Numbered from the stretch's first letter, positions 7,501 to 46,915 are shown. The stretch: DNA of 64,000 nt from a virus (IMGVR_UViG_3300026521_000148:16351-80350), one strand, 5' to 3'. Notes: generated by a model not told the origin, from the sequence alone. Numbers and translations are program-made.

Positions 7501-9146
7501 GTCTATCTACAATAACTAACACATTAACAGGTGTTAAAACATTTCTAGGTGATGGTATATTAGGTTTAAAAACAGCTTTACTTAAACCACTTAATCTTAT
7601 AACTAAACTCTTTGGCGGGCTATCGGATTTTATGGGTAGTAAATTTAAGTCTATAACTACTTCATTAAGTAGTTTTAAAGATAGTATTGTTAATAAAACA
7701 AAAAGCTTTTTTGGTACAGATAGTAAAGACGTCATAGATAAGCCAGAAACGCACCTTAAAGACACGAAAGTATCAACTACGAGTAAAACTACGAAACCAG
7801 TTAAAAAAGGTTTCTTCAGTAATTTATGGAGTAGTGCTAAAGCGAAAGCTAAATCTATCTTACCATCTAGTAAAACATTGGGTGTTGATAAATTAAAATC
7901 GTTATGGGGTGTAGTTAAAGAAAAGTTATTTAAGAAAGTAGGTAAAAAAGCTGGTATAAGGCTAGCTAGTAAAACATTAGCTAAATTCGTTCCTGGTGTT
8001 GGTACTGCTTTATTAGCTTATGATGCAGCTAAAGTAGGATGGGACCATTTCCATAACAACACGCCATTATTAAATGCTACATCTAAACAGCTGTTAGGTT
8101 TTGATGTGTTTGAAGATGATGGTGAAAGTACTAGCGATGTTAAAAAACCGTTATTAGAAGCCATTAATAATACTGGGTATAAACCAGTTATTAGACCAGT
8201 TAATAATCCTAAGTTTAAATCAGATATTAAGCTAGATAGTGATGGTAATGTAACTACACCTACAATAGGTAAAGTTAAGATAGATACAAAAGATATAAAG
8301 GTCCCTATAGAGCCTCTTATACAAGATCTTAAGAGAGATGAAGGTGTTGTATTACATAAATATAAAGATAGTTTAGGATATGAAACCATAGGAGTAGGAC
8401 ACCTATTAGATAAAAGAAAAGGTGGTAAAGATCTAAGAACTATCTTAGGTGTAGATAAGGATAATATAACTAGAGATGAAGCGGACGTTATATTGGTAGA
8501 TGATATTAACAAAACAAGTAAAGAGTTATATAAAGCATTACCATGGTTAGAAACTAAACCGTTAAATATACAAAATGATCTAACTAACATGGCGTTTAAT
8601 CTAGGTGTTGGTGGGCTACTTAAGTTTAAGAACACACTTAAGCACTTAGAGAATGGTGATTATAAGAGAACAGCAGCTGGTTTATACCAGAGTAAATGGA
8701 GAAGACAAGTTGGCGCTAGAGCAGATAGGATCATAGCCGATGTAGCTTCTACTCCTAATGATACAGTTATAGAGTCTAGTTCGAATAATGTAGTTAAACC
8801 AGATGTATCTACACTAGTGAGTAAACAACAGACTAAGACTACAATAGATAAATCTAAACAACAATATCAACAGTTACCTACTAAAGTAAGTGTTAATATG
8901 GATACCGTACAGGAAAGTAAACATCTAAGTGATGTTAAGGAGATAAATGGTAAGACATATGAAGTATTAAAAGATTCTCTTAAGGTACAAACAGGTATGT
9001 ACGATAAATTAGATAAGTTAGTATCGTTACAAGAGGAACAGTTAAAGATAATGACAAATGCTAATAGTCGTAGGAAACAATCTAACAACACTAGATTTGA
9101 GAATGATTATAAAGGTAAGGTAGATCATAAAACAGCTAATTTTTAA
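1563..9146 (+). CDS. Giant tail/tape-measure-type virion protein with C-terminal GH24 (T4-type) lysozyme (phiKZ gp181-like)
   Basis: 2527 aa, largely helical. Two GGxTGxG..(E/D)xAGxxHxxEY tape-measure motifs. Muramidase motif DLKRDEG...YKDSLGYETIGVGHL...NMAFNLG...SKWRRQVGARA at ~8325-8740. Confidence 0.8.
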   Translation: MMADEFEEFDDIDALMAEGDDFDMGDSSSSDGPVSTVDQISEGVVDSLNIDATAEKIKNSMLDSLPGNVGDGVYKAESAVDDLTEAFDKEMKPLKKATSATLGGIADVLPDSMADSVKSLKSWIDGDDESTGSNNEPTEDEKIASEVDQLLAKSAIEEQVNSKLASVQQKKDSELLSMIAEATTKTVVYKSEYDANYYKRSLELQLKQVLTTVKLYDLLKLDSENRSKQLDAIVKNTALPDFAKSRTSDIAKQMIMGTAKDVATNAFLKNDSISNLTKFGKEKMSGALGAATEMVGLGSDLSEILTMQMEQGATLTQVLSSMATDMVVDKAVSKGTDYALKKLFETQGGVKVLGDYDTFISDPQKALEKAKQAHIENGGSEEDLKYKALELGKEAIGEQYKTKSVNISNITDMRDAAQIDNKFVKTVDTVIPTYLSKMLNELTTIRKIAGNLQLSNDQQTNKVSSTNKGNSSLGSNTLGLQSSRPSDNVPKTEDELVYDFEKGRFVTKKDVKKVINEKIDKHVAKLADDIISSNIDELIVPDHLSIKERTSIALAISDYIMSGKSIAPAYMHEDGFLNYFKNDKELKKKVSKGLSRLESPENKLIYDQRAKLTQSLERLKKSSISNFSDIAKSADLNNSVDTLLEMGIVDEDNPNVISTKNVKDTYSKRIRKQTTGKIKESKLSLSEQQLVDSIKEKENKLKEKARTRDDKLKRTKTRTLRNYKDNEDAEKAFNKGIDSYGKTEDELDKVLNELIKDKPIEEANLIEEAFSLGLGQGLREAEELKRYKEERANLAKKYDNKVNRATKKMDEDEKSSFIDRLRAETLLEEIGSFSKGGSTGKGKDDEVAGIIHRNEYALNRKDIQDLANFISEGNVKKIVKFSTSILEDINKEDNVFDIKDIDKDIVTSFISKHIPDKVKDTYTDLKNNTKEFMEGDVVNDFYNNHKETFDSVKQFKDDKVSTIKTSYTKTKDKISKYIPETKVIEDAISNITKTLSSSLESISKDIPKNMTSVKENLTSFTETLGTTLGDMKTSLSTTFQEQMKSLGEFTDSIFRKGTLLSEAKDSVAGLASSQIKSVKEYVNGSTKSIRDELVEKGVLKIDKDGKIISVSSESIKDEINKTVDSVKNSKDDNIISKLVNTTTSMVSSGINSVKSVFSNTIDVTPEMLADIKNMEELVNEHGAGPIMKNYLASRPLPNNELAATDLYRAMFTVMDPSGQMWEKVKEMPDHLKDLEKLHVKAIEEGQKGLLGRALEASSNVFDKGSSLLGGMKDKIINSLPEPLRGPAKKLLDNKITKLAGNALTNLKKIGKGALKTTLDEMRIIGQEGKELFINKDGKLQVPNALKLAKFAGKAYGRSMVATGKGVRELYGGVLGKVDYKGKGFLGRFNKNNYEAQSGILTDTVKAAGGLAWDFTAGKSIKNTKKALNRLWAKVKPPITRELFNAWADGTMTAKDVEDALKTDEEKQIWRDWLKANTPSGVTLPKVLLKTGEWFVKSTVGTGKQVKKGYGSVFTAGKYAAKVAKDIAMEASGANDIKRSIKRTLTKPDIDKSLYRSWVKGDLTSNQVKDALQTQEEKDNWVKWLSGNATKHRSLPKLLNMTGKWFAKALGKTAAGVEVGYKSGFKKSKNVTGLASKVAYAVSGIDELLNSKDRHNVKFKTLLDIIPENMRAVVIDDISNNAKELGITTDELRILNENVNKLKRKDKQKLVRKMSDLVSLYLAEDDGLKDKIATDIKNLLLYTQSLNKHSKDTESNSSVKGVKVSTTKTFTGNKTSKEKEFLLGGWTGDGSVKDIAGKVHKEEYVINNKKVKELLNIVKKGNIDKINTFTTSIAKDIVKSSEKINEKIDKLDNPYEQMIELLKSINKSSSITASKPGLGSKFMETFTNIISDLKGTKDKVKSSLTRVGNRASVLKKLYGDKKEHAKRTIKEKLKDTKSDLWKTLLKFSPLIIGGITGLVKKYITEPFSNMFTSIKNVFSGGLSTITNTLTGVKTFLGDGILGLKTALLKPLNLITKLFGGLSDFMGSKFKSITTSLSSFKDSIVNKTKSFFGTDSKDVIDKPETHLKDTKVSTTSKTTKPVKKGFFSNLWSSAKAKAKSILPSSKTLGVDKLKSLWGVVKEKLFKKVGKKAGIRLASKTLAKFVPGVGTALLAYDAAKVGWDHFHNNTPLLNATSKQLLGFDVFEDDGESTSDVKKPLLEAINNTGYKPVIRPVNNPKFKSDIKLDSDGNVTTPTIGKVKIDTKDIKVPIEPLIQDLKRDEGVVLHKYKDSLGYETIGVGHLLDKRKGGKDLRTILGVDKDNITRDEADVILVDDINKTSKELYKALPWLETKPLNIQNDLTNMAFNLGVGGLLKFKNTLKHLENGDYKRTAAGLYQSKWRRQVGARADRIIADVASTPNDTVIESSSNNVVKPDVSTLVSKQQTKTTIDKSKQQYQQLPTKVSVNMDTVQESKHLSDVKEINGKTYEVLKDSLKVQTGMYDKLDKLVSLQEEQLKIMTNANSRRKQSNNTRFENDYKGKVDHKTANF

Positions 9147-9190: not shown

Positions 9191-9886
9191 TTATTTCTCC
9201 AAGAATGCTTTAACGATATCTTCGTTGGTTGTTTTCCCGTCAAGACCATCAAACAGATTATCTGACTTAAGATTGTCCATAATCTTATTGATAACGACTT
9301 CTTTAACTTTAAGTCTAAAAGCGTTATAATCTTTTGCATCAATATCCGCAACATCAGCACCAAACTCATCTATGAACATATTAACGATGGTTCTAAGATG
9401 AATACCAGCTATGATACCATATACTTTAAGTTTATCATTTCTGATCTCTTCAGTAAGAACACCGCGTTTAACTTCGATCATAGGCATAATGCGGATAGCA
9501 TCAATTTGATCATCATACTCACCAATAACATCTCTAATAAGATCTTCATCACTAAGGATTCTGTCAACTGTTACTAATGTAAGGATGTTCCAGAAGTTAG
9601 GAATATCTCTTTTAATAGCAGATCTACGAATGAAAGCGTAATCATTTTTACGCAGCTGTGAATTGATCCATACAGGTTTAGCATTTTCATAAGATAGAAA
9701 TCTCATAACGTTACCGATGCTGTATGTCTTACCAAAGATACTCTTAAAGTTAGCAGCAAAATCAATACTTAATCTATGGCCCAATGAGTCCTCTTCTAAG
9801 TGACTACCTACTTTTAACATTACTGTATCATTACGTTGTGTACCAAGATCTTTAAGATCCTCTAAACTCATTTTCTCTTTACTCAT
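9191..9886 (-). CDS. Hypothetical protein
   Basis: 231-aa ORF in a tightly packed minus-strand run. Confidence 0.75.
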   Translation of the reverse strand: MSKEKMSLEDLKDLGTQRNDTVMLKVGSHLEEDSLGHRLSIDFAANFKSIFGKTYSIGNVMRFLSYENAKPVWINSQLRKNDYAFIRRSAIKRDIPNFWNILTLVTVDRILSDEDLIRDVIGEYDDQIDAIRIMPMIEVKRGVLTEEIRNDKLKVYGIIAGIHLRTIVNMFIDEFGADVADIDAKDYNAFRLKVKEVVINKIMDNLKSDNLFDGLDGKTTNEDIVKAFLEK

Positions 9887-10311: not shown

Positions 10312-10908
10312 TTAATCGTTTTTACTTATAAGTAATTCATGCTCACTAACTTTACCATGTATGCTTTTTATTTCTACTCCTATAGTAACATTATCGTTAT
10401 CTAATAGTTCGAATACTAGAAAGATATAACTTTTCCAAGATATAACCTCAGATTCTAATACCTTAGCTATAGTAGCTTTATTCTTTTTACCACCTTTTTT
10501 ATGGTAGTTAGTTATCAACTTGCGTTGGTCTTTTTTACTGTTTAATTTTAGATCTATTAGTAGATCATCAAAGTTTTGTTTAAGGATCTCTCCTGATGTT
10601 TTCTCCTTATAGTCTTCTTGTTTCTTTTTAGTAGAGATAACATATATTTTGTTGTTCTTAGTTACCTTTAATATTAAAATTATGTAATGTGCTTTTAATA
10701 CCCTTAATAATAAGAACGTGAAACTATTCCATGTCATCTCGCCAGCTAAGATTAACCTACTTATCGTAGTTCTATTCTTAGTACCTACATACCTATTTAT
10801 AAAATAATTAATAGAATTTATAAAACCAGTTTCTATTAATATCTTCCTAAATAGCTTTGTGAGTATGCCATCTTCACTACTCTGTATGGGTGACATCTCT
10901 TTAAGCAT
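10312..10908 (-). CDS. Hypothetical protein with an internal duplicated domain
   Basis: 198 aa, GGAGG RBS; two similar halves (ISRLILAGEMTWNSF / IAKVLESEVISWKSY). Confidence 0.7.
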   Translation of the reverse strand: MLKEMSPIQSSEDGILTKLFRKILIETGFINSINYFINRYVGTKNRTTISRLILAGEMTWNSFTFLLLRVLKAHYIILILKVTKNNKIYVISTKKKQEDYKEKTSGEILKQNFDDLLIDLKLNSKKDQRKLITNYHKKGGKKNKATIAKVLESEVISWKSYIFLVFELLDNDNVTIGVEIKSIHGKVSEHELLISKND

Positions 10909-10928
10909 AACTTACCTCCTATTTATGT

Positions 10929-11378
10929 CTAACTATTGTGGATATCGATGCAGATATACACTATGTTAATAATATACTGTTTAAATAGTTTAGATCTGAA
11001 AAATAGATAACTATATTCTGGGTAACTAACACTATTAACATATGCGTTTAATAAACTAACTAAGTCCTCTAAAAACTCTTTATAATAAGTATTATAATTA
11101 ATACTCACGCTACCATTACTATCCTTTATGAAATCAATAAGCCGCATTTCCCTAAAACTATCACTCACGTGATAGTCTAAGAGAATGGCTGAGTCTTGGT
11201 TAATTAATAATTGCTTAGTTACACTTTTATAATAGAATATGTTAGGAAACTTACTAGTTATAATAGTTTCCGTTAACCCATCCTTTATTATGTCTTTATC
11301 TTTTATACTACTTAACAACCTATCTACTAATTGTAGACTACCTATGACGTCGTCTAAATTTAGATCTTCATATTTCAT
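10929..11378 (-). CDS. Hypothetical protein
   Basis: 149-aa ORF, divergent from 11435. Confidence 0.65.
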   Translation of the reverse strand: MKYEDLNLDDVIGSLQLVDRLLSSIKDKDIIKDGLTETIITSKFPNIFYYKSVTKQLLINQDSAILLDYHVSDSFREMRLIDFIKDSNGSVSINYNTYYKEFLEDLVSLLNAYVNSVSYPEYSYLFFRSKLFKQYIINIVYICIDIHNS

Positions 11379-37137: not shown

Positions 37138-40100
37138 ATGAGTCAAATTTTAATAAAGAAACGTAGCGGCGTAATGGAACCACTTGACGATGAGAAATAT
37201 CACCAGCATGTAGAGGAAGCAGTTAAAGGTATAAAGGGTGTATCAGCATCGCAAATAGAGATGGACGCAGCTATGAATATAGTCGACGGTATGCGCTCTA
37301 CAGAGATACAACACGCATTGATCATGTCGGCTAGTAATAAGATACCAACTGACCCAAGATACAACAAACCGGCAGCTAGGCTACTTAACCAAGATTTAAG
37401 AAAAAGAGTTTATGGTGATTATAAACCAGATGATTTTGTTAAACATATCGTTGGTAATATCGAAAATGGTGTATATGATAAATCCTATTTAGAAGAGAAC
37501 TACACTGATGATGAGTTTAAAGAGTTATTGTCTATCATAGATTATGATAAAGATGATAAGTTCACATATTCTGGTTTAAAGAAAAATACTGATGGGTATT
37601 TGATAAAGCGTTATGGAGAGATAAAAGAAACTCCTCAAGAATCATACATCATGATAGCTATATTCGCATTTGCTAAGTATAAAGAAAAATATGATGTAGA
37701 AACAAGAGCATATTGGGTTAAAGAGTTATATACAGCATTAAGTGATTTTGAGATAAGTCTACCTACACCTATCATGGGTAAACTAAGAACAACTTTTAGA
37801 AACTTTATAAGTTGTGTACTTATTCCATTAGGAGATACGAAAAGAAGTATAGCTAACGCATTCTCTACTATATTAACTGTTGTTGCATCTGGTGCCGGTA
37901 TTGGGTTAGGCGGGTACGATATCCGTGGCCAAGGTGCTGATATAGATGATGGTAGAATGCAACATGTTGGTACATTCCCTATTATTAAAGCCAGTGAAAA
38001 AACTACTAAAGCTTTTGTACAACCAGATAGAGACGGTAGCACTACTGTATTCTATGCTTTTTACAATGTAGAGATCTTGAAGATGATGACATGGGGTAAT
38101 GCTAAAGGTACTGATGATACAAGAGCTAGAGATCTAGACCATGCCATTAACTTTAATAAGTTATTCTTCGAGAGATTAAGAGATGGTAAAGATATAACAT
38201 TATTTTTTACAAATGATGTACCTATGCTTAAAACATGTCTTGGTGATTTTAAAACTTTTAAAAGATTTTACGAACAATATGAAAATACTGTTCCTGTAGA
38301 AAGACAAACTAAGGTACCTGCAGAGGTTATATTCGATAATTTTATAGATGAACGCGTGTTACAGTCTAGAGAGTATGCCGCTTTCATGGATGCGGTGCAA
38401 ATGCATGGTGGTTATGATGTACCTATTAATCAGTTAAACCTTTGCGTTGTTGGTAGTACAGAAATATTAACAAAAGAGTATGGTAACATAGAAATAGGTA
38501 AATTAGTTAATGATATGGGAGTTACTAGTACGGAATGCTGGAATGGTGAGGAGTGGTCACAAACAGAATTATTTAAAACAAGTGACGGTCAAAAAGTTTG
38601 GACTATCATACTCAGTAACGGTGTTAAGCTGGAGGTAACGCCATACCATAAATGGTATGTTAAGAAAGATCCTAATAAGTACGATAGTCCGATAATCGAA
38701 AAAAGAACACACGAGTTACTAATAGGTGATAAACTAGAAAAATTCCTATTACCAGATGATGTCAAATTTGGCGATAAACTGATATTAAATCCCTATACAT
38801 CTGGTTTCTTCACATCTGATGGAACCGATTTAGGGCAAAATAAACGCATCCGTCTGTATAACGAAAAAACAAATTTATTAGATAAGTTATTTAAGAAGAT
38901 TAGGTATAAACGTTTTTTTAAAGCTAACGAAAATAATAACTCAGTTATTGAGGTATATTATTCGTCTAACTATTTAGAGGATAAATTTTTTGTACCAACA
39001 TCAGAATATAGAAAATCTGATGTATTAAAATGGTTAGCTGGTGTGTTGGATGGCGATGGAACAGTACTTAACAATAACGGGGCTATGTCTATACAACTAG
39101 CGTCTGTTAATGAAGAGTACCTTACTAAGATACGCTTACTTTTAGTAAATTTCGGTATCGATGCGAAAATCTCGGTTTTTAATAACGAGCGCGTTGTTCC
39201 TCTACCAACGAATAAGGGCGATGGTAGTGCGAAATTATATAAATGTAAAAAGGCATGGCGCATTACTATACCTGGTAATGATGTTAATACGTTAATAAAA
39301 CACGGCATAAAACTACATAGATTAGATATAAGACACCATGACTATAATAGAGATGCTAGGAGTTTCGTGACAGTTAAAGCTATAATCGACGATGGTGGCA
39401 TTAGTGATACCTATTGCGGTACAGAACCTAAAAGAAATAAATTATTGTTCAATGGCGTTTTAACAGGTAACTGTAACGAGATCGCACAGCCGACATTTCC
39501 ACTTGAGTCTTTGTATAATATTAAAAGAAATATTAGATTTTATACAGAAGAAGATATGAAACACTATTATGAATTAAGACATCAGTTATTCTCGTTACAA
39601 TCTTACGAAAATAAGTTTTCTTACACTATAAGAAAACAGATGACTAGACACTTTGAGTTTGTTAATAGTGATCTCGGAGCTACTGTAGATGAAACTTTAC
39701 CTTATGATTATTTCGATCTATTAGGTCTACCTGTTATGGATGAAACAGGTGTTTGTATTATTGCTGGTATAAATATAGGACATGTTAAAGTGGAAAGGCT
39801 CCCTATAGTTTCTGAATTGTTAGTTAGGGTTCTTGATGAGCTTATTGACTATAACAAATATGAATCTTCATACATGGAGAAAGCTGCTAAGATGCGTAGG
39901 GGCATAGGTATAGGTTTTAGTGATGTATTTCACTTATTAGCTATTAATGAAGTTAAGTATAATACTAAAGATGGTATGGAGCTGATTAATGAAAGATGTG
40001 AGTTAGCTACCTACCATATGATAAAAACATCTATACAACTAGCAGAAGATTTTGGTCCTTGTTTATTAAGTTACGATAATAAGTATAGTAAAGGTATATT

Positions 40101-40692
40101 CCCTATAGATACGTATGAAAAGAATGTTGATGAGTTGGTGTCTAGATCACCATTAGGGTTAGATTGGGATGGTCTTAAAGTTAGAGCTAGAAAATCCGGT
40201 ACTAGACATAGCACACTATTCGCTAATGCGCCATATGGTAACTCTGCGATACCTTCAGGTAGTACATCTGGTATAGAGCCACCTAGAAGTCTTATCTATA
40301 AGAAACATGGTTTATATAATGTTGTTCCTGATTACGAAACACACAAAGATTTCTACACTACAGCATGGAGTGATGAATTTAACAATGCTGATTACTTTAA
40401 GTTTACAGCTGTTGTTCAGAAGTGGTGGGATCAAGCATTAAGTCTTAATGAGTATAGAAACTTATTAAAATACGTAGATGGTAAGATACCTAAATCAGAG
40501 TTAATGAGAGATATACTTATAGCTATGCATTATGGACATAAATCTATGTACTACCTTAATGTTAAGTCTAAAGAAAAAGATAAAGACGGAGATGGTGATG
40601 ATAGTCTGTATAAAGCAGATATAAAAGAAGAGATTATTATAGAAGATGAAGATGATAGCATAAGCTGTGAAAGTGGTAGCTGTTCTATTTAA
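37138..40692 (+). CDS. nrdA: Ribonucleotide reductase class Ia alpha subunit (intein-containing)
   Basis: ATP cone, SLPTP, SCVL, NL[intein]CNEI, KSMYY, C-terminal CESGSCSI. Confidence 0.95.
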   Translation: MSQILIKKRSGVMEPLDDEKYHQHVEEAVKGIKGVSASQIEMDAAMNIVDGMRSTEIQHALIMSASNKIPTDPRYNKPAARLLNQDLRKRVYGDYKPDDFVKHIVGNIENGVYDKSYLEENYTDDEFKELLSIIDYDKDDKFTYSGLKKNTDGYLIKRYGEIKETPQESYIMIAIFAFAKYKEKYDVETRAYWVKELYTALSDFEISLPTPIMGKLRTTFRNFISCVLIPLGDTKRSIANAFSTILTVVASGAGIGLGGYDIRGQGADIDDGRMQHVGTFPIIKASEKTTKAFVQPDRDGSTTVFYAFYNVEILKMMTWGNAKGTDDTRARDLDHAINFNKLFFERLRDGKDITLFFTNDVPMLKTCLGDFKTFKRFYEQYENTVPVERQTKVPAEVIFDNFIDERVLQSREYAAFMDAVQMHGGYDVPINQLNLCVVGSTEILTKEYGNIEIGKLVNDMGVTSTECWNGEEWSQTELFKTSDGQKVWTIILSNGVKLEVTPYHKWYVKKDPNKYDSPIIEKRTHELLIGDKLEKFLLPDDVKFGDKLILNPYTSGFFTSDGTDLGQNKRIRLYNEKTNLLDKLFKKIRYKRFFKANENNNSVIEVYYSSNYLEDKFFVPTSEYRKSDVLKWLAGVLDGDGTVLNNNGAMSIQLASVNEEYLTKIRLLLVNFGIDAKISVFNNERVVPLPTNKGDGSAKLYKCKKAWRITIPGNDVNTLIKHGIKLHRLDIRHHDYNRDARSFVTVKAIIDDGGISDTYCGTEPKRNKLLFNGVLTGNCNEIAQPTFPLESLYNIKRNIRFYTEEDMKHYYELRHQLFSLQSYENKFSYTIRKQMTRHFEFVNSDLGATVDETLPYDYFDLLGLPVMDETGVCIIAGINIGHVKVERLPIVSELLVRVLDELIDYNKYESSYMEKAAKMRRGIGIGFSDVFHLLAINEVKYNTKDGMELINERCELATYHMIKTSIQLAEDFGPCLLSYDNKYSKGIFPIDTYEKNVDELVSRSPLGLDWDGLKVRARKSGTRHSTLFANAPYGNSAIPSGSTSGIEPPRSLIYKKHGLYNVVPDYETHKDFYTTAWSDEFNNADYFKFTAVVQKWWDQALSLNEYRNLLKYVDGKIPKSELMRDILIAMHYGHKSMYYLNVKSKEKDKDGDGDDSLYKADIKEEIIIEDEDDSISCESGSCSI
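38443..39471 (+). mobile_element. Intein (343 aa) with LAGLIDADG endonuclease in NrdA
   Basis: Starts CVVGSTEILTK, block B TPYH, LAGLIDADG motifs SGFFTSDG and LAGVLDGDG, ends NGVLTGN before the catalytic Cys. Confidence 0.93.
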
Positions 40693-40701
40693 AAAAACAA
40701 T

Positions 40702-40733
40702 ACATAACTATGGACCATGGTCCATAGTTATGT
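40702..40733. terminator. Perfect palindrome between convergent operons
   Basis: ACATAACTATGGACCA|TGGTCCATAGTTATGT. Confidence 0.75.
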
Positions 40734-41944
40734 TAAAATTTATATATAAAACCAATACTAAACGCAACCATATCTTCATAAGTAGCACTATATTCGTCTA
40801 TAGGTGATGTTTTAGGAACACCAAATATTTGTGTTGTTTTATTTGTTGTATTCTTATAATAACCAAACATAGCTTTAACCATGAAATCTTTTTTAATAGT
40901 TATTGTATCATACATTTTAAATGTGTACCCTAATGCACCACTATTGTTTATAGACAATGGGACACCAACAGTCATGTTGTCATAACCGGGAGATACATAT
41001 TTACCTTCGAACCCTAACCTCATACTGCGATGAAGTATAACATCATCAAATATCTTAGAATAACCTAATAATAGGGAATACCCGTGTGTTTCATATTTAC
41101 CAAAATAACTATTACTTGGAGGTGTTTCTATAAACTTGTTTAAAAGAGTACTATCCCCTTTTGTTTTAGACATAGAGCCTATGATATAAAATGTATCACC
41201 TATGGTTTCTAATCTATCATATACGAACTCTATGCCAACTAACTTTAGATCTTTAGTACCTGCGTCATAGAGTATCTCTTTATATGTATAATAATTAAAA
41301 TCCATACTTAATTTATCAGTTATATCACTCTTAATCAAAACAGTATATCCATAACTACCGTTAAATGCTTTCATAGTTTTTCTGTTATCGTATGTGTATT
41401 GATTAGTATCCATAACGTAAGCTGTATCTACGAACTCTCCTTTTGATATCCTACCACCAGTTATGATTGTATCTCTATCTCTCCATGTTAACAATAGTCC
41501 TTCTAACTCAAAATCTACTAAACCATATATACCTATACCGTTAGTACTATCATAAAGATCTGTGTTATTAAAACTACCTGTTTTAAAGTTTAATATACCT
41601 GTTGTTAAATATAGATTATTTATTAAATGTTTAGTATAATAGAAGTTCTCTACATTTATAACATCATAGTCACCTAACTGATGTTTATATTTATTATTGT
41701 AACCTGTACCGGTAACCCCTATGTAACTTATAGTACTAGCGATTTTATCTTTATCTATAAGTAATAGAGTGTTATTTCTAAGTACAGTTCTAACTAACGT
41801 ACCATTATCTCTATCGCCATCATCAATCGGGCTATTATAATAACCAACTGCTTTATCCATTAACAGATATGTATTACTCTTTATGTCGTCTAGTGCATGT
41901 AGACCACATATAACTACTAATAAACCTATTATAATGTTTTTCAT
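40733..41944 (-). CDS. Putative outer-membrane beta-barrel (porin-like) protein
   Basis: Signal peptide ending LHA, Tyr/Gly-rich amphipathic strands, C-terminal FSIGFIYKF matching a BAM beta-signal. Confidence 0.7.
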   Translation of the reverse strand: MKNIIIGLLVVICGLHALDDIKSNTYLLMDKAVGYYNSPIDDGDRDNGTLVRTVLRNNTLLLIDKDKIASTISYIGVTGTGYNNKYKHQLGDYDVINVENFYYTKHLINNLYLTTGILNFKTGSFNNTDLYDSTNGIGIYGLVDFELEGLLLTWRDRDTIITGGRISKGEFVDTAYVMDTNQYTYDNRKTMKAFNGSYGYTVLIKSDITDKLSMDFNYYTYKEILYDAGTKDLKLVGIEFVYDRLETIGDTFYIIGSMSKTKGDSTLLNKFIETPPSNSYFGKYETHGYSLLLGYSKIFDDVILHRSMRLGFEGKYVSPGYDNMTVGVPLSINNSGALGYTFKMYDTITIKKDFMVKAMFGYYKNTTNKTTQIFGVPKTSPIDEYSATYEDMVAFSIGFIYKF

Positions 41945-42258
41945 TTCTTATCCTTAAAGATATAGAACGAATTCGATCCCATGTCGGTATTTTCATCATG
42001 TGTTAAACAAAAACATGCTTCTTTCATAAGTTGTTCCTTTTTAACACCACAAACATAATAAGATAACTTATTATTATTACAAACTCGTTTCCAACTTACA
42101 ACTGTTTTTATGTCTGGATCTATACATAATTCATTAAGTACGTTAGTACACTTTTTCTTACTATACTTACAGCCTACATTTATAGTCGGCAGTATAGCAG
42201 GTTCAGCATGAAGTATGACAGATATAAACAAAACTATAGATGATATTTTCTTTATCAT
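41941..42258 (-). CDS. Small secreted cysteine-rich protein
   Basis: Signal peptide (LHA-EP), 7 Cys in the ~87-aa mature part, no CxxCH; overlaps both neighbours. Confidence 0.7.
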   Translation of the reverse strand: MIKKISSIVLFISVILHAEPAILPTINVGCKYSKKKCTNVLNELCIDPDIKTVVSWKRVCNNNKLSYYVCGVKKEQLMKEACFCLTHDENTDMGSNSFYIFKDKK

Positions 42259-43577
42259 ACTCGTTCCTTTTTCTTTTCTACTACTTTAAATACTAATCTA
42301 AAGATGGTGCCTTGTTTAGTTGTTTTTAACACTTCAACACTACCTCCTATAGATTCTAACTCTTTTTTATTTATATACATACCTATACCCCTGAGTTTAC
42401 TACTCTTACCATCTCTAGCTATTTCACCGTTAGCTTTTTTAGTAGTGACGCCTTGCTCAAATATTATATTAGGATCTTTTACTATATTACCATGTTTATC
42501 TTGTATGCCTATACCGTTATCTACTAATAGCATCTCTACTACATTAGTATCTATCATTTTTAACATTATAGATAGCTTACTAGCTTTTGCTTCTTTACTA
42601 TTAACTATATGGTTTTTTAATATTCTACCTGTCTTACTATTCCCTAACTCCCTACAAGGCCTAAACCTTTTAGCTATATCCCTGCCCTTAACAATAGTGA
42701 CATCTATTTTCCTAACTGATAATGAATTAACAAAATTTGTTATAGTAGTTATTATCTCGTATATACTAGCTTCTGTTTCTTGGTACTTTAACTTCTTAGT
42801 ATTTGATATAGTATGTATAACTTCTTCTATTGTCTCTACTGCCATTATGCTGTTAGAGTACATATCGTCTATTTTAACTAGATCATAAGTTTTTTTATCA
42901 ACAAGCTCACATTCTGCTAAACAACTAGGTTTCTCTGTTAAGTGTTTATACATAGACGTTATTAAACTTTTTAATAGTGCTAGTGGTAAATTTATTTCAT
43001 GACCTATAGATTCACCAAGATCTCTCTGTAACGCTATCTCTAACTCTTCTTCTTTAGCTTTATCCCTTATATCTAAAATCTTTATACGTTCGTATTTATA
43101 TATAAAAAATGGTATAGTGAAAAAAAGAAATAGAAAAAAATAGTTAATAATCATTAACGTATTAACAGAATCAAAATACGCTGAATCATCTACTATTATT
43201 CTATTACCTTTAAACTCTATAACTGTATCATAATCTTCATTAAACACATTACAAAATAAAGGTTCAAACTTACTTATATCAACGGTATCTCTTCGTAAGA
43301 TACCGTTGATACTTTTATAAGTCACGCCATTACTACTCTCTAATTTATCGCATGTTACTGTGTTGCATATGAGATTAAGATCCACTCCATTAAGTCTATC
43401 AACGGTTTCTAATCGTGTATAATATTTTTCTAAAGATGTCTTATATGTACTATACATAGTTATAACATTAAATAACGTTATAGTAACTAAGACTATGAAA
43501 CCTAACTTTATATATTCTTTACCTGTTTCTTTAGTTAAAACTCTATTAAGAATATCTTTATTAATATTAAACATCAT
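42255..43577 (-). CDS. Membrane sensor histidine kinase
   Basis: Two TM helices around a periplasmic domain; H-box HEINLPL, N-box ILKNHIVNSKEA, G1 DNGIGI, F-box IFEQGVTTK, G2 GIGMYI, GTIF. Confidence 0.9.
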   Translation of the reverse strand: MMFNINKDILNRVLTKETGKEYIKLGFIVLVTITLFNVITMYSTYKTSLEKYYTRLETVDRLNGVDLNLICNTVTCDKLESSNGVTYKSINGILRRDTVDISKFEPLFCNVFNEDYDTVIEFKGNRIIVDDSAYFDSVNTLMIINYFFLFLFFTIPFFIYKYERIKILDIRDKAKEEELEIALQRDLGESIGHEINLPLALLKSLITSMYKHLTEKPSCLAECELVDKKTYDLVKIDDMYSNSIMAVETIEEVIHTISNTKKLKYQETEASIYEIITTITNFVNSLSVRKIDVTIVKGRDIAKRFRPCRELGNSKTGRILKNHIVNSKEAKASKLSIMLKMIDTNVVEMLLVDNGIGIQDKHGNIVKDPNIIFEQGVTTKKANGEIARDGKSSKLRGIGMYINKKELESIGGSVEVLKTTKQGTIFRLVFKVVEKKKERV

Positions 43578-44203
43578 TAATCCTTATATAATAACTCATA
43601 GATGCGCTTATATCTTTCTGAGTTTTTATTAAGATAATAGTTACTAAAGTTTAAACCTGTAGCATCCTCAAATTTCTTAAAGAAAAAACCAACTGTGGGG
43701 TTCTTCTTATTAAGAGTGTGGGCTGTACAAAATATAAATTTAAGATCAGGATTTCTTTTATATAACTCTAAAAATACGTCTATACCATCATACTCGACAT
43801 AATCACCATTAGTTAATTTAACACCATATCCTAATGTTATATCTAATATAGCGTAGTCAACATGTTCATAATTTTCGTGTATGAACTTATGCGCTATAAA
43901 ACCAGCTTTAGGTCCTAAACATGTTATTATATTAAAATCTTCATTAACGTCTTTATCATACACTCTTTTTATGTCTTTAAAATCTTCCCCATACAGATAC
44001 CACATATTTTGTATATCATCTAGTATTAATATGGTCTTACCATTCTCTACTCTAGATATACCAGGGTTACCGTATTTATCATAGTCTATACTTTCAACAC
44101 CATCTTGTATATCTGTTAGTAATTTATCCAATTCTTTATTATTATATTCTTTATTATTATCATTTTTTTCTTTTTTAAAAAATCTTTTAAATATGTTTAA
44201 CAT
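43577..44203 (-). CDS. Response-regulator receiver protein with no output domain
   Basis: ILILDD, AILDI (phospho-Asp), DGID, IFCTAH (switch Thr), YLNK (conserved Lys). Confidence 0.85.
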   Translation of the reverse strand: MLNIFKRFFKKEKNDNNKEYNNKELDKLLTDIQDGVESIDYDKYGNPGISRVENGKTILILDDIQNMWYLYGEDFKDIKRVYDKDVNEDFNIITCLGPKAGFIAHKFIHENYEHVDYAILDITLGYGVKLTNGDYVEYDGIDVFLELYKRNPDLKFIFCTAHTLNKKNPTVGFFFKKFEDATGLNFSNYYLNKNSERYKRIYELLYKD

Positions 44204-44213
44204 ATCGATTCTC

Positions 44214-44678
44214 CTATATAAGGTTAGTTAAGGCTTTTAGACCTAATGTTAATAAACTATGCATAGCTGAAACAGCCTTCTCAACAGCTACTGGTTCTAG
44301 ATGGTATAGTATAGTAAAAAATAAAGTTGTTGTAAAGACAACACTCATACCTTTTAAAGCATTCTTATATGTAAAAAGTTTAGCCTCTTTTTCCTCTTTA
44401 AGTTTTTCTACCTCTACTAACATTTCTTTGTATTTATTAAGTAGTGCCATATCTAGATCTATGATATGTATAAGTGACCTAACATGATGATGACGTATAG
44501 CTTGTAGCTCTGCTGTATAATTGTTAGTTAATAAAATAAGTATCTCTTTAAGCTCTCTATCTATAGAGTCCATAGCTATAAGTTTATTAACACTAGCATT
44601 CTCTTCCGTCCTAGATTCCATTGTTGTATTAAATATGTTTTCTTTTAATTCAAATAGTTTTTTATTTATATCTTCCAT
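44214..44678 (-). CDS. Coiled-coil protein with C-terminal TM helix, first gene of the signalling operon
   Basis: 154 aa, GGGAG RBS, hydrophobic MSVVFTTTLFFTILY. Confidence 0.7.
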   Translation of the reverse strand: MEDINKKLFELKENIFNTTMESRTEENASVNKLIAMDSIDRELKEILILLTNNYTAELQAIRHHHVRSLIHIIDLDMALLNKYKEMLVEVEKLKEEKEAKLFTYKNALKGMSVVFTTTLFFTILYHLEPVAVEKAVSAMHSLLTLGLKALTNLI

Positions 44679-44722
44679 GGTAACTCCCTATGCGTAAAAT
44701 CAAATAAATTAAAAGAAAAAAC

Positions 44723-44750
44723 TACTACTAGCCTAACTAGGCTAGTAGTA
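44723..44750 (-). terminator. Hairpin terminator
   Basis: TACTACTAGCCTA-AC-TAGGCTAGTAGTA with T-tract on the minus strand. Confidence 0.75.
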
Positions 44751-44752
44751 TG

Positions 44753-45217
44753 TTAGTTTGCATCGCTGCGTTCATTTTTTTCAGTATTTACTGCTTCTTC
44801 ATCACCAGGAATACTAGCTGCTTCTGCGGCTGCCTTAGCTAAACCAGCAGGATTTATCTGTTCCATTTGTTTTTGGAACTCTTCACGTTTTTTACGTTCT
44901 TCTTCTGCTTGTTTACGAGACGCTTCAATCTCTTCAGCAGTAGGGAATGCTTGTTCAATCTTTTCAAACATTTGATCTTCAGTAAGACTATCTGCTAAAC
45001 TGATAACATTGTTGTAAGCTACTTCTAAACCTTTTGGCGTTTTAGCTAAAAGAACAACACTTACTTCATGACTTGTAATTGTTTCATCTTTTTCATAATC
45101 ACAAGTTAAAACATTTTCTTGTACCTGTACTTTAGCGATAAATACATTTTTATCTTCACCAGCTCTTTCTAAGAACGCTGTTACTTCTTCTAGTGCTTTT
45201 TGTTTTACATTTTCCAT
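44753..45217 (-). CDS. Hypothetical acidic protein
   Basis: 154 aa, AAGGA RBS, own promoter and terminator. Confidence 0.75.
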   Translation of the reverse strand: MENVKQKALEEVTAFLERAGEDKNVFIAKVQVQENVLTCDYEKDETITSHEVSVVLLAKTPKGLEVAYNNVISLADSLTEDQMFEKIEQAFPTAEEIEASRKQAEEERKKREEFQKQMEQINPAGLAKAAAEAASIPGDEEAVNTEKNERSDAN

Positions 45218-45306: not shown

Positions 45307-45336
45307 TAGCGATTACTCACTATCTTAATAATATAA
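45307..45336 (-). promoter_or_regulatory. Putative early promoter (variant)
   Basis: Minus strand TATATTATTAAGATAGTGAGTAATCGCTA. Confidence 0.5.
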
Positions 45337-45804: not shown

Positions 45805-46086
45805 TCACTTCAATTCATTCGCTTGTTGTTCGGGCTGTTTCTTTTTCACATAGTTTAATAAGAAATCAGTAACACCTGTATTTCTCAGTAATCTTTCACC
45901 GAACCAAAATACAATAATGACTATCATGATATCGCTTAACTTGTCTATATAAATATCTGGTAAATCATCGTGTTTAAAAAATGTGTATACATAAAGTATC
46001 GTGAATACATATGTTAAAACAGGTCTTATAGACGACTTTAATTTTAATACCCAATTAGGACTATAGTTATCTGTATTTAATTCCAT
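45805..46086 (-). CDS. Putative holin (GTA 3TM-holin-like)
   Basis: WV..L.SSIRPVLTY...IIVFWFGER motif with two TM segments. Confidence 0.65.
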   Translation of the reverse strand: MELNTDNYSPNWVLKLKSSIRPVLTYVFTILYVYTFFKHDDLPDIYIDKLSDIMIVIIVFWFGERLLRNTGVTDFLLNYVKKKQPEQQANELK

Positions 46087-46604
46087 GGTAATTTCCTTAG
46101 ATTTATTAATGGTTTATATTCAGCATATTTAACATTAGGATCTTTATAAATAGAAACTAAATTAAATAATAGGTTAGGTGATACACTAGAAGGCTCTAAG
46201 TACCACATAGGTTTATAGCCATCTATTTTTAATACGTTACTAGCTACTTCAGAACAGAACCACATATCACTTCTATCTTTAAACGGTAAAACAAAACCTA
46301 TTATACCAGCGTAGTCATATTTTTGATCTACTATAGATTCTAGGAATTCAACTATTACATCTTGATTATTTATAGGTACATGTACGTAATCGTATCTACT
46401 AGCATTTATATCATTTAGTATATGTTCATTTTTAACTACTTTACCCCTACCCTCTTTTGCTTCGTAACTAACATATTCACCATTTACTTTTAAAATTATT
46501 GCTACATGGCTATAAGGACCATTTGTCCAAGCTGCTATAAGCTTACTTGTAAAAGCAGTATCATTTACATCGGTTCTTCTAAATCCCAATATCATAGTAT
46601 CCAT
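46077..46604 (-). CDS. Permuted papain-like (YiiX/YaeF, peptidase C92) amidase
   Basis: YSHVAI before YDYAG...WFCSE...SP..L. Confidence 0.8.
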   Translation of the reverse strand: MDTMILGFRRTDVNDTAFTSKLIAAWTNGPYSHVAIILKVNGEYVSYEAKEGRGKVVKNEHILNDINASRYDYVHVPINNQDVIVEFLESIVDQKYDYAGIIGFVLPFKDRSDMWFCSEVASNVLKIDGYKPMWYLEPSSVSPNLLFNLVSIYKDPNVKYAEYKPLINLRKLPWN

Positions 46605-46606
46605 AT

Positions 46607-46915
46607 CTAACCCCTAAATAATAAAAATAAAACAGTTAACGTTATCATAACTGCATTTTTAGATGTATATATGATATCTAATATATCAGGAGTATGTTTA
46701 CTTTTATTAAAATAGTCATATACCTCTTTACTAGTAGCTACTAATACTACTATAACTGTAGCTAAAATAAATATAGTAGCCATAGACATAGTAATAAAGA
46801 AAGAAACTAATGTTAACACTATAAGGCTTATAGTATATAAAACATCACCGTAATACGCATGTAATAACTTATCATTAGGGATAAATTCATTAAGTCTTTT
46901 TAAGATCTTCTCCAT
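46607..46915 (-). CDS. Membrane protein
   Basis: DKLLH...KEVYD...D..DI.. pattern, 3 hydrophobic segments. Confidence 0.65.
   Translation of the reverse strand: MEKILKRLNEFIPNDKLLHAYYGDVLYTISLIVLTLVSFFITMSMATIFILATVIVVLVATSKEVYDYFNKSKHTPDILDIIYTSKNAVMITLTVLFLLFRG

Follow-up and report, generated by a model that had tools for sequence, protein, structure and literature searches.

A conserved operon of uncultured large phages, encoding a complete kinase-receiver pair and envelope components

Phages that sense their surroundings through arbitrium, VqmA-phage or LuxR-type receptors, or through the agr kinase of phiCDHM1, do so with cytoplasmic receptors or with a borrowed host response regulator. 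In T4 lysis inhibition, the antiholin RI binds the holin T in the periplasm, and no phosphotransfer is involved. Porins carried by phages, such as Lc of phage PA-2 and NmpC of a defective lambdoid prophage, are near homologues of host OmpC/OmpF and belong to temperate phages. The agr kinase of phiCDHM1, a temperate phage of Clostridium difficile, is reported to be a recent host acquisition that comes without a response regulator (PMC3901668). In a survey of 224 jumbo phages, the only receiver domain reported is 'cREC', which is never linked there to histidine kinases (Iyer et al. 2021, PMC7824862). Other proteins of viral proteomes have been annotated, by similarity, as receiver-like or kinase-like, and we found no study of a comparable phage kinase-receiver module in the literature searched. 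Here we describe a five-gene operon on IMGVR_UViG_3300026521_000148:16351-80350, a stretch of 64,000 nucleotides (hereafter the window) that is part of an 80,350-bp IMG/VR viral contig with a CheckV completeness estimate of 29%. The operon carries a complete kinase and receiver pair together with envelope components, as an earlier note on this DNA had suggested, and the block as such proved to be shared with other large phages.

Organization of the operon and its conservation in large phages

The operon is made of five tightly packed genes on the minus strand (40733-44678), with one terminator hairpin at each end. In operon order, the open reading frame (ORF) calls are a gene for a 154-aa protein, here named g154 (44214-44678), the receiver (43577-44203, 208 aa), the histidine kinase (42255-43577, 440 aa), a Cys-rich protein (41941-42258, 105 aa) and a porin-like barrel (40733-41944). 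The successive junctions are a 10-nt gap, a 1-nt overlap (TAATG) and two 4-nt overlaps (ATGA in both cases), and a GGAG or AAGGA ribosome-binding site stands ahead of all five starts. The GC content of the operon genes (26.5-29.4%) was judged consistent with the range of 27-35% in the window. On the same strand, the upstream hairpin (44750-44723; 12-bp stem and T-run) ends the transcript of the preceding gene, and the downstream hairpin (40733-40702; 14-bp stem and T-run) separates the operon from the convergent gene of ribonucleotide reductase (RNR); terminator-like sites number 5 in this region, against 0.9 expected from shuffled sequences. ORFs, junctions, hairpins and composition all agree with the earlier note, which had described five touching or overlapping minus-strand genes with a largest gap of 10 nt, bounded by hairpins at 44723 and 40702, with phage-like composition and ribosome-binding sites.

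Hairpins of differing sequence are found at the equivalent positions on both sides of the block in two related loci, L009 and L010, where the downstream one directly follows the barrel gene, as in the window. Since hairpins flank the block in three phages, the block behaves as an insulated transcription unit. The leader of the operon (44679-44722, minus strand) contains a GGAG ribosome-binding site and a TTGA...TTAC motif, a possible phage promoter judging from its sequence, and similar leaders are present in L009 and L010; a promoter scan detected no sigma-70-type promoter in the window leader. Upstream of the operon lies a gene for a 154-aa acidic protein (44753-45217, minus strand), also conserved beside the module in L009, and ahead of this gene there is an early-promoter-like element, ATATTATTAA-GA-TAGT (45310-45332, minus strand). 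This element was considered as the operon promoter and dropped, as it is located upstream of the preceding gene and no such element stands directly before the operon.

Several other contigs were found to carry the block, in full or in part. L009 holds the upstream gene and all five operon genes in the same order, L006 holds the receiver, kinase, Cys-rich protein and barrel genes followed by the same convergent RNR gene, and L008 the receiver, kinase and Cys-rich protein genes. The full five-gene block is also present, at 20-45% identity, in L010, a locus of G001, whose 205,015 bp are bounded by direct terminal repeats; the RNA polymerase (RNAP) beta subunit of G001, of the phiKZ type, is 41% identical to that of the window. 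Overall, the whole block is found in the same order in G001 and in metagenome contigs at 20-60% identity. Shorter versions occur in L011 (g154-like, receiver, kinase), L012 (g154-like, receiver, an unrelated Cys-rich protein with two transmembrane (TM) segments, kinase) and L013 (receiver and kinase). Receiver, kinase and g154 form a core that returns in several large-phage lineages; as the phiKZ-type RNAP is absent from G003 and G004, this core is not confined to a single lineage. Three lineages keep the receiver and the kinase without barrel and Cys-rich protein, so that these two components are accessory and not essential to the core. The barrel extends the core in the window lineage and in two others, with an exported small protein between kinase and barrel wherever the locus is readable. 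The L012 gene between receiver and kinase (10657-11268) encodes a 203-aa protein with 8 Cys and a TM segment at both ends; it may be an analogous exported partner, homology with the Cys-rich protein of the window having been ruled out (E 35).

Metagenome loci were retrieved with a degenerate DNA motif (ETIEEV), which gave three true loci and one chance hit, L007. In IMG/VR the same motif returned chance hits only, and a second receiver motif returned the chance hits L016 and L018 and the already known L011 contig. The receiver family counts 36 members, four of them on IMG/VR contigs, and JGI metagenomes contain 5 kinase homologues at 49-58% identity. Single-protein scans of IMG/VR with the kinase and with the barrel gave no match, and alignment-based kinase scans, whose patterns were low-complexity TM stretches, found nothing. 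Among 50,697 deposited phages, blastn/tblastn gave no match to the block, to the kinase, to a barrel relative or to receivers of two lineages. Two motif scans, each limited to one peptide motif, covered 185,579 species-representative genomes, Campylobacterota not being searched directly, and found none either. In a further lineage, clusters of receiver and barrel sequences lie on contigs of identical sizes (165,374, 164,448, 11,604 and 9,471 bp); because these four sizes are identical, receiver and barrel appear to co-occur there, and the 164-165 kb contigs fit jumbo phages binned with a host-like metagenome-assembled genome (MAG).

Homologues of the block proteins are all 20-70% identical, none being near-identical. 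In L006 the RNR gene still follows the block, and in L009 the 154-aa gene still precedes it; conservation of the block together with its two flanks excludes a chimera. As the block is conserved in other large phages, with no copy in deposited phages or in the genome motif scans, we regard it as neither a chimera nor a recent capture. By comparison of these sequences, the module appears to be inherited within phages, with relatives so far only in uncultured large-phage and metagenome contigs.

The contig also carries genes for a phiKZ-type RNAP beta subunit, a DNA polymerase, an NAD-dependent ligase, RNR and an SbcC-like nuclease. The relatives of the DNA polymerase among deposited phages are all phiKZ-like jumbo phages of 200-320 kb, at no more than 35% identity, and the presence of the phiKZ-type genes together with these distant polymerase relatives indicates that the source is a distant, uncultured phiKZ-like jumbo phage. 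Its host is Gram-negative, probably of low GC and perhaps Arcobacter-like. The gene for the RNR large subunit (37138-40692, plus strand) has an in-frame insert of about 340 aa at about residues 438-778. This insert, most likely an intein, shows a LAGLIDADG-like motif and has Cys/Asn-Cys junctions; the L006 orthologue is without the insert, residues 204-437 and 779-1142 being matched contiguously.

Signalling proteins and envelope components

The kinase has TM segments at residues 21-45 and 137-161, enclosing a periplasmic loop of about 90 aa (about 46-136) with a conserved C71-x4-C76 pair. Its HATPase_c domain (PF02518) scores 31 bits against a Pfam cut-off of 26.4, and the Pfam HisKA model gives no match. 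The motifs of a histidine kinase could nonetheless be placed: H193 within an H-box G-H-E-I-N-L-P (192-198; compare the pattern H-E-x-x-x-P), the N-box (322-332, with N326), G1 (353-357, D353-N-G-x-G357), F373 and G2 (397-399, G397-x-G399). In an alignment of 10 kinase sequences, the H-box (E-x3-H-E), N-box, DNGxG, F-box and GxG are invariant, down to 20% identity. A wider kinase profile searched against the PDB aligned Thermotoga HK853 over the dimerization and histidine phosphotransfer (DHp) and catalytic (CA) domains with E 3e-10 and the H-boxes superposed; a narrower profile returned no PDB match. The second TM segment runs almost directly into the DHp helix, indicating that the kinase has no HAMP or PAS domain. 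We consider the protein, on the strength of these motifs, a genuine inner-membrane class I sensor histidine kinase of the HisKA type, with the intact boxes and the periplasmic domain that the earlier note had recognized.

Two further features of the kinase gene were observed. The loop between the DHp helices (residues ~205-235) contains C219 and C223, and the kinases of L010 (6407-7807) and L011 (10533-11954) have 4-5 Cys in this loop, including CxxC pairs; such a Cys-bearing loop looks like a cytoplasmic zinc-ribbon-like or redox-sensitive insert. Inside the part of the gene that encodes the periplasmic loop there is a perfect inverted repeat with a 14-bp stem (43277-43311), marked by the scanner as terminator-like on the plus strand.

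The receiver is a single domain of about 120 core residues, with an N-terminal extension of about 45 aa, a beta-hairpin insert just after D121 and no output domain. In the family alignment of 35 homologues, D62, D63, D121 and K193 are invariant and position 160 is S or T, followed by A161 (T160-A161 in the window). Against Pfam PF00072 the protein reaches 12.5 bits, with a cut-off of 30.2. The best 16 matches of its profile in the PDB are all CheY or receiver proteins, although weak (E 0.009-0.9). Its AlphaFold2 model has a predicted local distance difference test (pLDDT) of 84.5, and the best Foldseek matches of this model in the PDB are all receivers (DesR, CheY, Spo0F, ArcA), with probability 1.0 and target-normalised TM scores of 0.6-0.7. 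Taken together, alignment and model describe a divergent stand-alone CheY-like domain with a predicted (beta-alpha)5 fold and a complete phospho-acceptor pocket. The earlier reading of a receiver that keeps DD/D/T/K and has no DNA-binding output is therefore upheld by the invariant residues and by the fold. Having no DNA-binding or output domain, the receiver must act via protein contacts.

The Cys-rich protein has a signal peptide and 7 Cys (at 30, 37, 45, 60, 70, 82 and 84), all in the mature part and all kept in the L006 and L009 orthologues. It has no lipobox, as C30, which follows N-V-G, is about 11 residues past the predicted cleavage site, and by sequence reading none is present in its orthologues either. 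It has no match in Pfam, PHROGs, NCBIfam or PADLOC, and its structure-atlas model is unusable (pLDDT 0.38). The protein is probably periplasmic, and we consider it a candidate co-sensor.

The barrel protein (40733-41944, minus strand) is all-beta, with a signal peptide and a C-terminal F, and its monomer model is that of a predicted 16-strand general-porin-like outer-membrane barrel. The model is structurally near OprB, OprO/P and chitoporin, general or substrate-specific porins, and its top Foldseek match is AlgE, an export barrel. The protein matches nothing in Pfam (porin families included), PHROGs, NCBIfam or PADLOC, ten distant relatives belong to no Pfam family, and only 21 relatives were found among 1.84 billion representative proteins. 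Profiles, motifs and models thus agree with the previous domain assignments for kinase, receiver and barrel, and with the proposal of an exported 7-Cys protein followed by a barrel bearing the signal of the beta-barrel assembly machinery (BAM).

The g154 protein, neighbouring genes and possible outputs

The first protein of the operon, g154, has a predicted N-terminal cytoplasmic helical domain and a hydrophobic C-terminal segment, which is a clear TM segment in all orthologues. The family shares a conserved E-x-LILL-x-x-N motif, and N53 and D74 are invariant. No match was found in Pfam, PHROG, NCBIfam, PADLOC or the PDB; the profile of g154 searched against PDB and Pfam gave noise alone, with no CheZ, Spo0E, XhlA or holin match, and the structure-atlas search returned an unnamed viral cluster and nothing else. 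The sequence features are those of a tail-anchored inner-membrane helical protein of no known family. The likeness to XhlA-type lysis proteins proposed in the earlier note holds for topology (coiled coil and C-terminal TM segment) and does not extend to homology, since no match to the XhlA or holin families (Pfam XhlA, holin PHROGs) was obtained with g154 or with any of 13 family members.

Orthologues of g154 adjoin the receiver gene in L009, L010, L011 and L012, and g154 is a candidate output partner of the receiver. The binding of the two proteins, suggested previously, was examined by complex prediction. The pair scored 0.38, versus 0.00 for the best of 3 controls, with at least 84% contact agreement between runs and a partner pLDDT of at least 69. 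The mark set for the complex score is passed by 58 of 80 solved complexes and by 2 of 110 mismatched pairs; at scores of 0.60 or lower, it is passed by 7 of the 80 solved complexes and by both passing mismatches, counts that are only approximate for receiver and g154, for which our own alignments were used as input. The prediction thus lends slight in-silico support to the proposed contact.

We also looked at the genes around the module. In the window, three lysis-like genes on the minus strand lie 1.1-2.2 kb upstream of the operon and are not part of it: a gene for a protein with about 3 TM segments (46607-46915), holin-like by topology only, a gene for a 175-aa candidate permuted-papain amidase of the C92/YiiX type (46077-46604), a weak family match, and a gene for a 1-TM protein (45805-46086), called from ORF and topology. 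The C92-like and the holin-like genes are at 1.4-2.2 kb, and the nearby holin-like gene and amidase of the earlier note are thus confirmed in position, the first with its identity given by topology and the second by the weak C92/YiiX-type match.

In L011, a Peptidase_M15_3 gene is directly upstream of the g154-like gene, and before it stands a C92 amidase gene, two genes before the module, whose product is the homologue of the window 175-aa protein and scores 25.5 bits with Peptidase_C92, just under the cut-off. The window and L011 thus both have a C92-like amidase gene close to the module. In L012, a Peptidase_M15_4 gene is two genes upstream of the g154-like gene, and between them lies a gene (9269-9523) for a protein of 84 aa that has a coiled coil at its N-terminus and a TM segment at its C-terminus, an XhlA-like topology, so that in this phage the module may be embedded in a lysis cassette. 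Adjacency of the core and lysis genes is recurrent in at least two independent lineages and is not universal, and with five loci it carries no firm statistic. The lysis link of the earlier note gains from the M15 endolysin-type peptidases found upstream of the core in two other lineages, and control of lysis timing or of superinfection stands as a conjecture. Upstream of the lysis-like genes and the module, L012 also has a stand-alone gene for an HD_5 (HD-GYP-type) phosphodiesterase (7616-8218); this protein was considered as an alternative receiver partner and dropped, being present in L012 only and in none of the other module-bearing records.

Based on these results, we propose a self-contained phage two-component module in which an envelope cue would pass through kinase, receiver and g154 to control the membrane step of lysis, a reading that we hold to be evenly balanced between right and wrong. 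The phage-made porin would admit, or itself report, an envelope or external cue, and the periplasmic Cys-rich protein might serve as a co-sensor on the periplasmic loop of the kinase, by analogy with LuxP-LuxQ, TorT-TorS and CpxP-CpxA. The kinase would autophosphorylate on H193 and pass the phosphoryl group to D121 of the receiver, as the conserved residues suggest. The receiver would then act by contact with another protein at the inner membrane, g154 being the most likely target through its cytoplasmic helical domain. Because the core repeatedly adjoins endolysin and holin-like genes, control of the lysis membrane step, by timing or inhibition in response to the envelope state, would be the most likely output. 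The core can work without porin and Cys-rich protein.

Several observations weigh against this proposal. At the level of the score of receiver and g154, a pass is wrong more often than it is right, and no g154 was found in L013. Neither barrel nor Cys-rich protein is present in L011, L012 or L013, or anywhere in G002, G003 or G004, and the L010 orthologue of the Cys-rich protein keeps just 2 Cys in its mature part. No lysis genes were found next to the module at L010, where a helicase gene and unknown genes are upstream, or at L013, which has a tail gene, and in the window three genes and two terminators stand between the lysis-like genes and the operon. Inheritance within phages has to be set against the narrow reach of the genome motif scans noted above, and against the NCBI contigs of 164-165 kb, putative phages that carry the label 'MAG: Arcobacter sp.'.

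A more specific version of the proposed module, which we put forward tentatively and do not expect to be the case, is a phosphorelay counterpart of T4 lysis inhibition, in which porin and co-sensor would deliver the cue and the receiver would act on the tail-anchored protein to delay or trigger lysis; the cue would be, for example, products of lysing neighbours or superinfecting phage.

The module could also serve to manipulate the host. The phosphorylated receiver would act on host machinery, for instance the flagellar switch as CheY does, or would drain or feed host phosphorelays; the porin would be an auxiliary uptake channel for nutrients and g154 a scaffold or an unrelated membrane protein. 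CheY proteins are indeed the best profile matches of the receiver family, CheY, Spo0F and DesR are among its best structural matches, the barrel fold is that of a general or substrate-specific porin near OprB, OprO/P and chitoporin, and phage-borne porins are known (Lc of phage PA-2). We nevertheless regard this explanation as unlikely. A g154-like gene is directly upstream of the receiver at four further loci of distinct lineages, and this conserved position argues for a phage-encoded receiver partner. The porin is missing from three lineages that retain the core. Finally, the receiver is far from cellular CheY (12.5 bits in Pfam; PDB profile E 0.009), and a protein so divergent is unlikely to mimic a specific host CheY.

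Superinfection or conflict between phages may provide the cue in another way, with the kinase detecting envelope damage or foreign components and exclusion being triggered, for example via g154, and the phage porin replacing or masking host receptors. That the kinase reads the periplasm (2 TM segments, a loop of ~90 aa, conserved C-x4-C), that the block, like a moron, has terminators of its own to insulate it, and that T4 lysis inhibition is itself a case of periplasmic superinfection sensing are all in line with this idea. Yet none of the five proteins matches a known defence model (PADLOC, E <= 0.01), no exclusion effector is indicated in the loci, and the idea overlaps largely with control of lysis timing, from which sequence does not separate it; we find it quite improbable.

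Communication between phages, in which the Cys-rich protein would be exported through the barrel and sensed by the kinases of neighbouring infected cells, has in its favour the signal peptide of this small protein, the place of its gene, which lies between those of kinase and barrel and overlaps each of them at the start and stop codons, and the export barrel AlgE as top match; even so, it has little likelihood in our view. That the operon was recently captured from a host, or is an assembly chimera, and has no role specific to the phage is largely refuted and has next to no likelihood: a receiver homologue (54% identity) and a barrel relative do occur on the contigs labelled Arcobacter and the GC of the module (26.5-29.4%) is slightly under that of the phage replication genes (31-34%), but both flanks are conserved with the block, the full block resides in a 205-kb terminal-repeat phage genome sharing the phiKZ-type RNAP, no homologue is near-identical, the genome motif scans found nothing, barrel relatives number only 21 among 1.84 billion representative proteins, and a size of 164-165 kb fits jumbo phages binned into a MAG.

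Comparison with known signalling systems

If the proposal is true, virulent jumbo phages would read the state of the envelope or of their surroundings during infection and respond without transcription, and a two-component counterpart of T4 lysis inhibition would represent a new kind of phage decision circuit. The module could serve as an orthogonal, compact signalling unit. In addition, four protein families so far without annotation are defined here, namely the divergent receiver, g154, the Cys-rich protein and the porin-like barrel.

Closest to the module among working systems are CheA-CheY, KinA-Spo0F, DivJ/PleC-DivK and HK853-RR468 of Thermotoga, in which single-domain regulators act by protein contacts. 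The module shares with them a HisKA-type kinase with H, N, G1, F and G2 boxes and a receiver with DD, D, T/S and K. It differs in being located on a virulent-type jumbo phage, in a family so far known only from phage and metagenome contigs. Moreover, its receiver is too divergent for the Pfam model and has a 45-aa extension and a beta-hairpin insert beside the phospho-site, and its kinase lacks HAMP and PAS domains and has an insert with Cys residues in the DHp loop.

Among phages, the nearest precedent is the agr cassette of phiCDHM1, which likewise combines a membrane histidine kinase with genes for an exported partner (PMC3901668). In contrast to this cassette, the module has a cognate receiver, belongs to a deeply diverged family and has a Gram-negative host and an outer-membrane component. 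With cREC, the receiver shares divergence and a jumbo-phage origin, and it differs in that it always adjoins a histidine kinase gene (PMC7824862).

In its layout, with a barrel, a small periplasmic protein and an inner-membrane kinase encoded together, the module may be likened to LuxP-LuxQ, TorT-TorS, CpxP-CpxA and RcsF with its outer-membrane proteins (RcsF-OMP); such a layout is what a relay sensing across the envelope would be expected to have. The Cys-rich protein differs from RcsF in having no lipobox and is far smaller than binding proteins of the LuxP/TorT type; the comparison with these systems is one of layout, not of sequence or fold. Like Lc and NmpC, the barrel is a phage-encoded 16-strand barrel resembling general porins, whereas it matches no Pfam porin family and is in an operon with a two-component pair. 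With XhlA, g154 and the 84-aa protein of L012 share a coiled coil and a C-terminal TM segment, and no homology. The possible functional analogy with T4 lysis inhibition is that a signal derived from the periplasm alters a membrane lysis protein, by direct protein binding in T4 and, as proposed here, by phosphotransfer in the module.

In conclusion, what sets the module apart from known phage sensing is that its kinase-receiver pair is complete and comes with a membrane partner of its own and with outer-membrane and periplasmic accessories.

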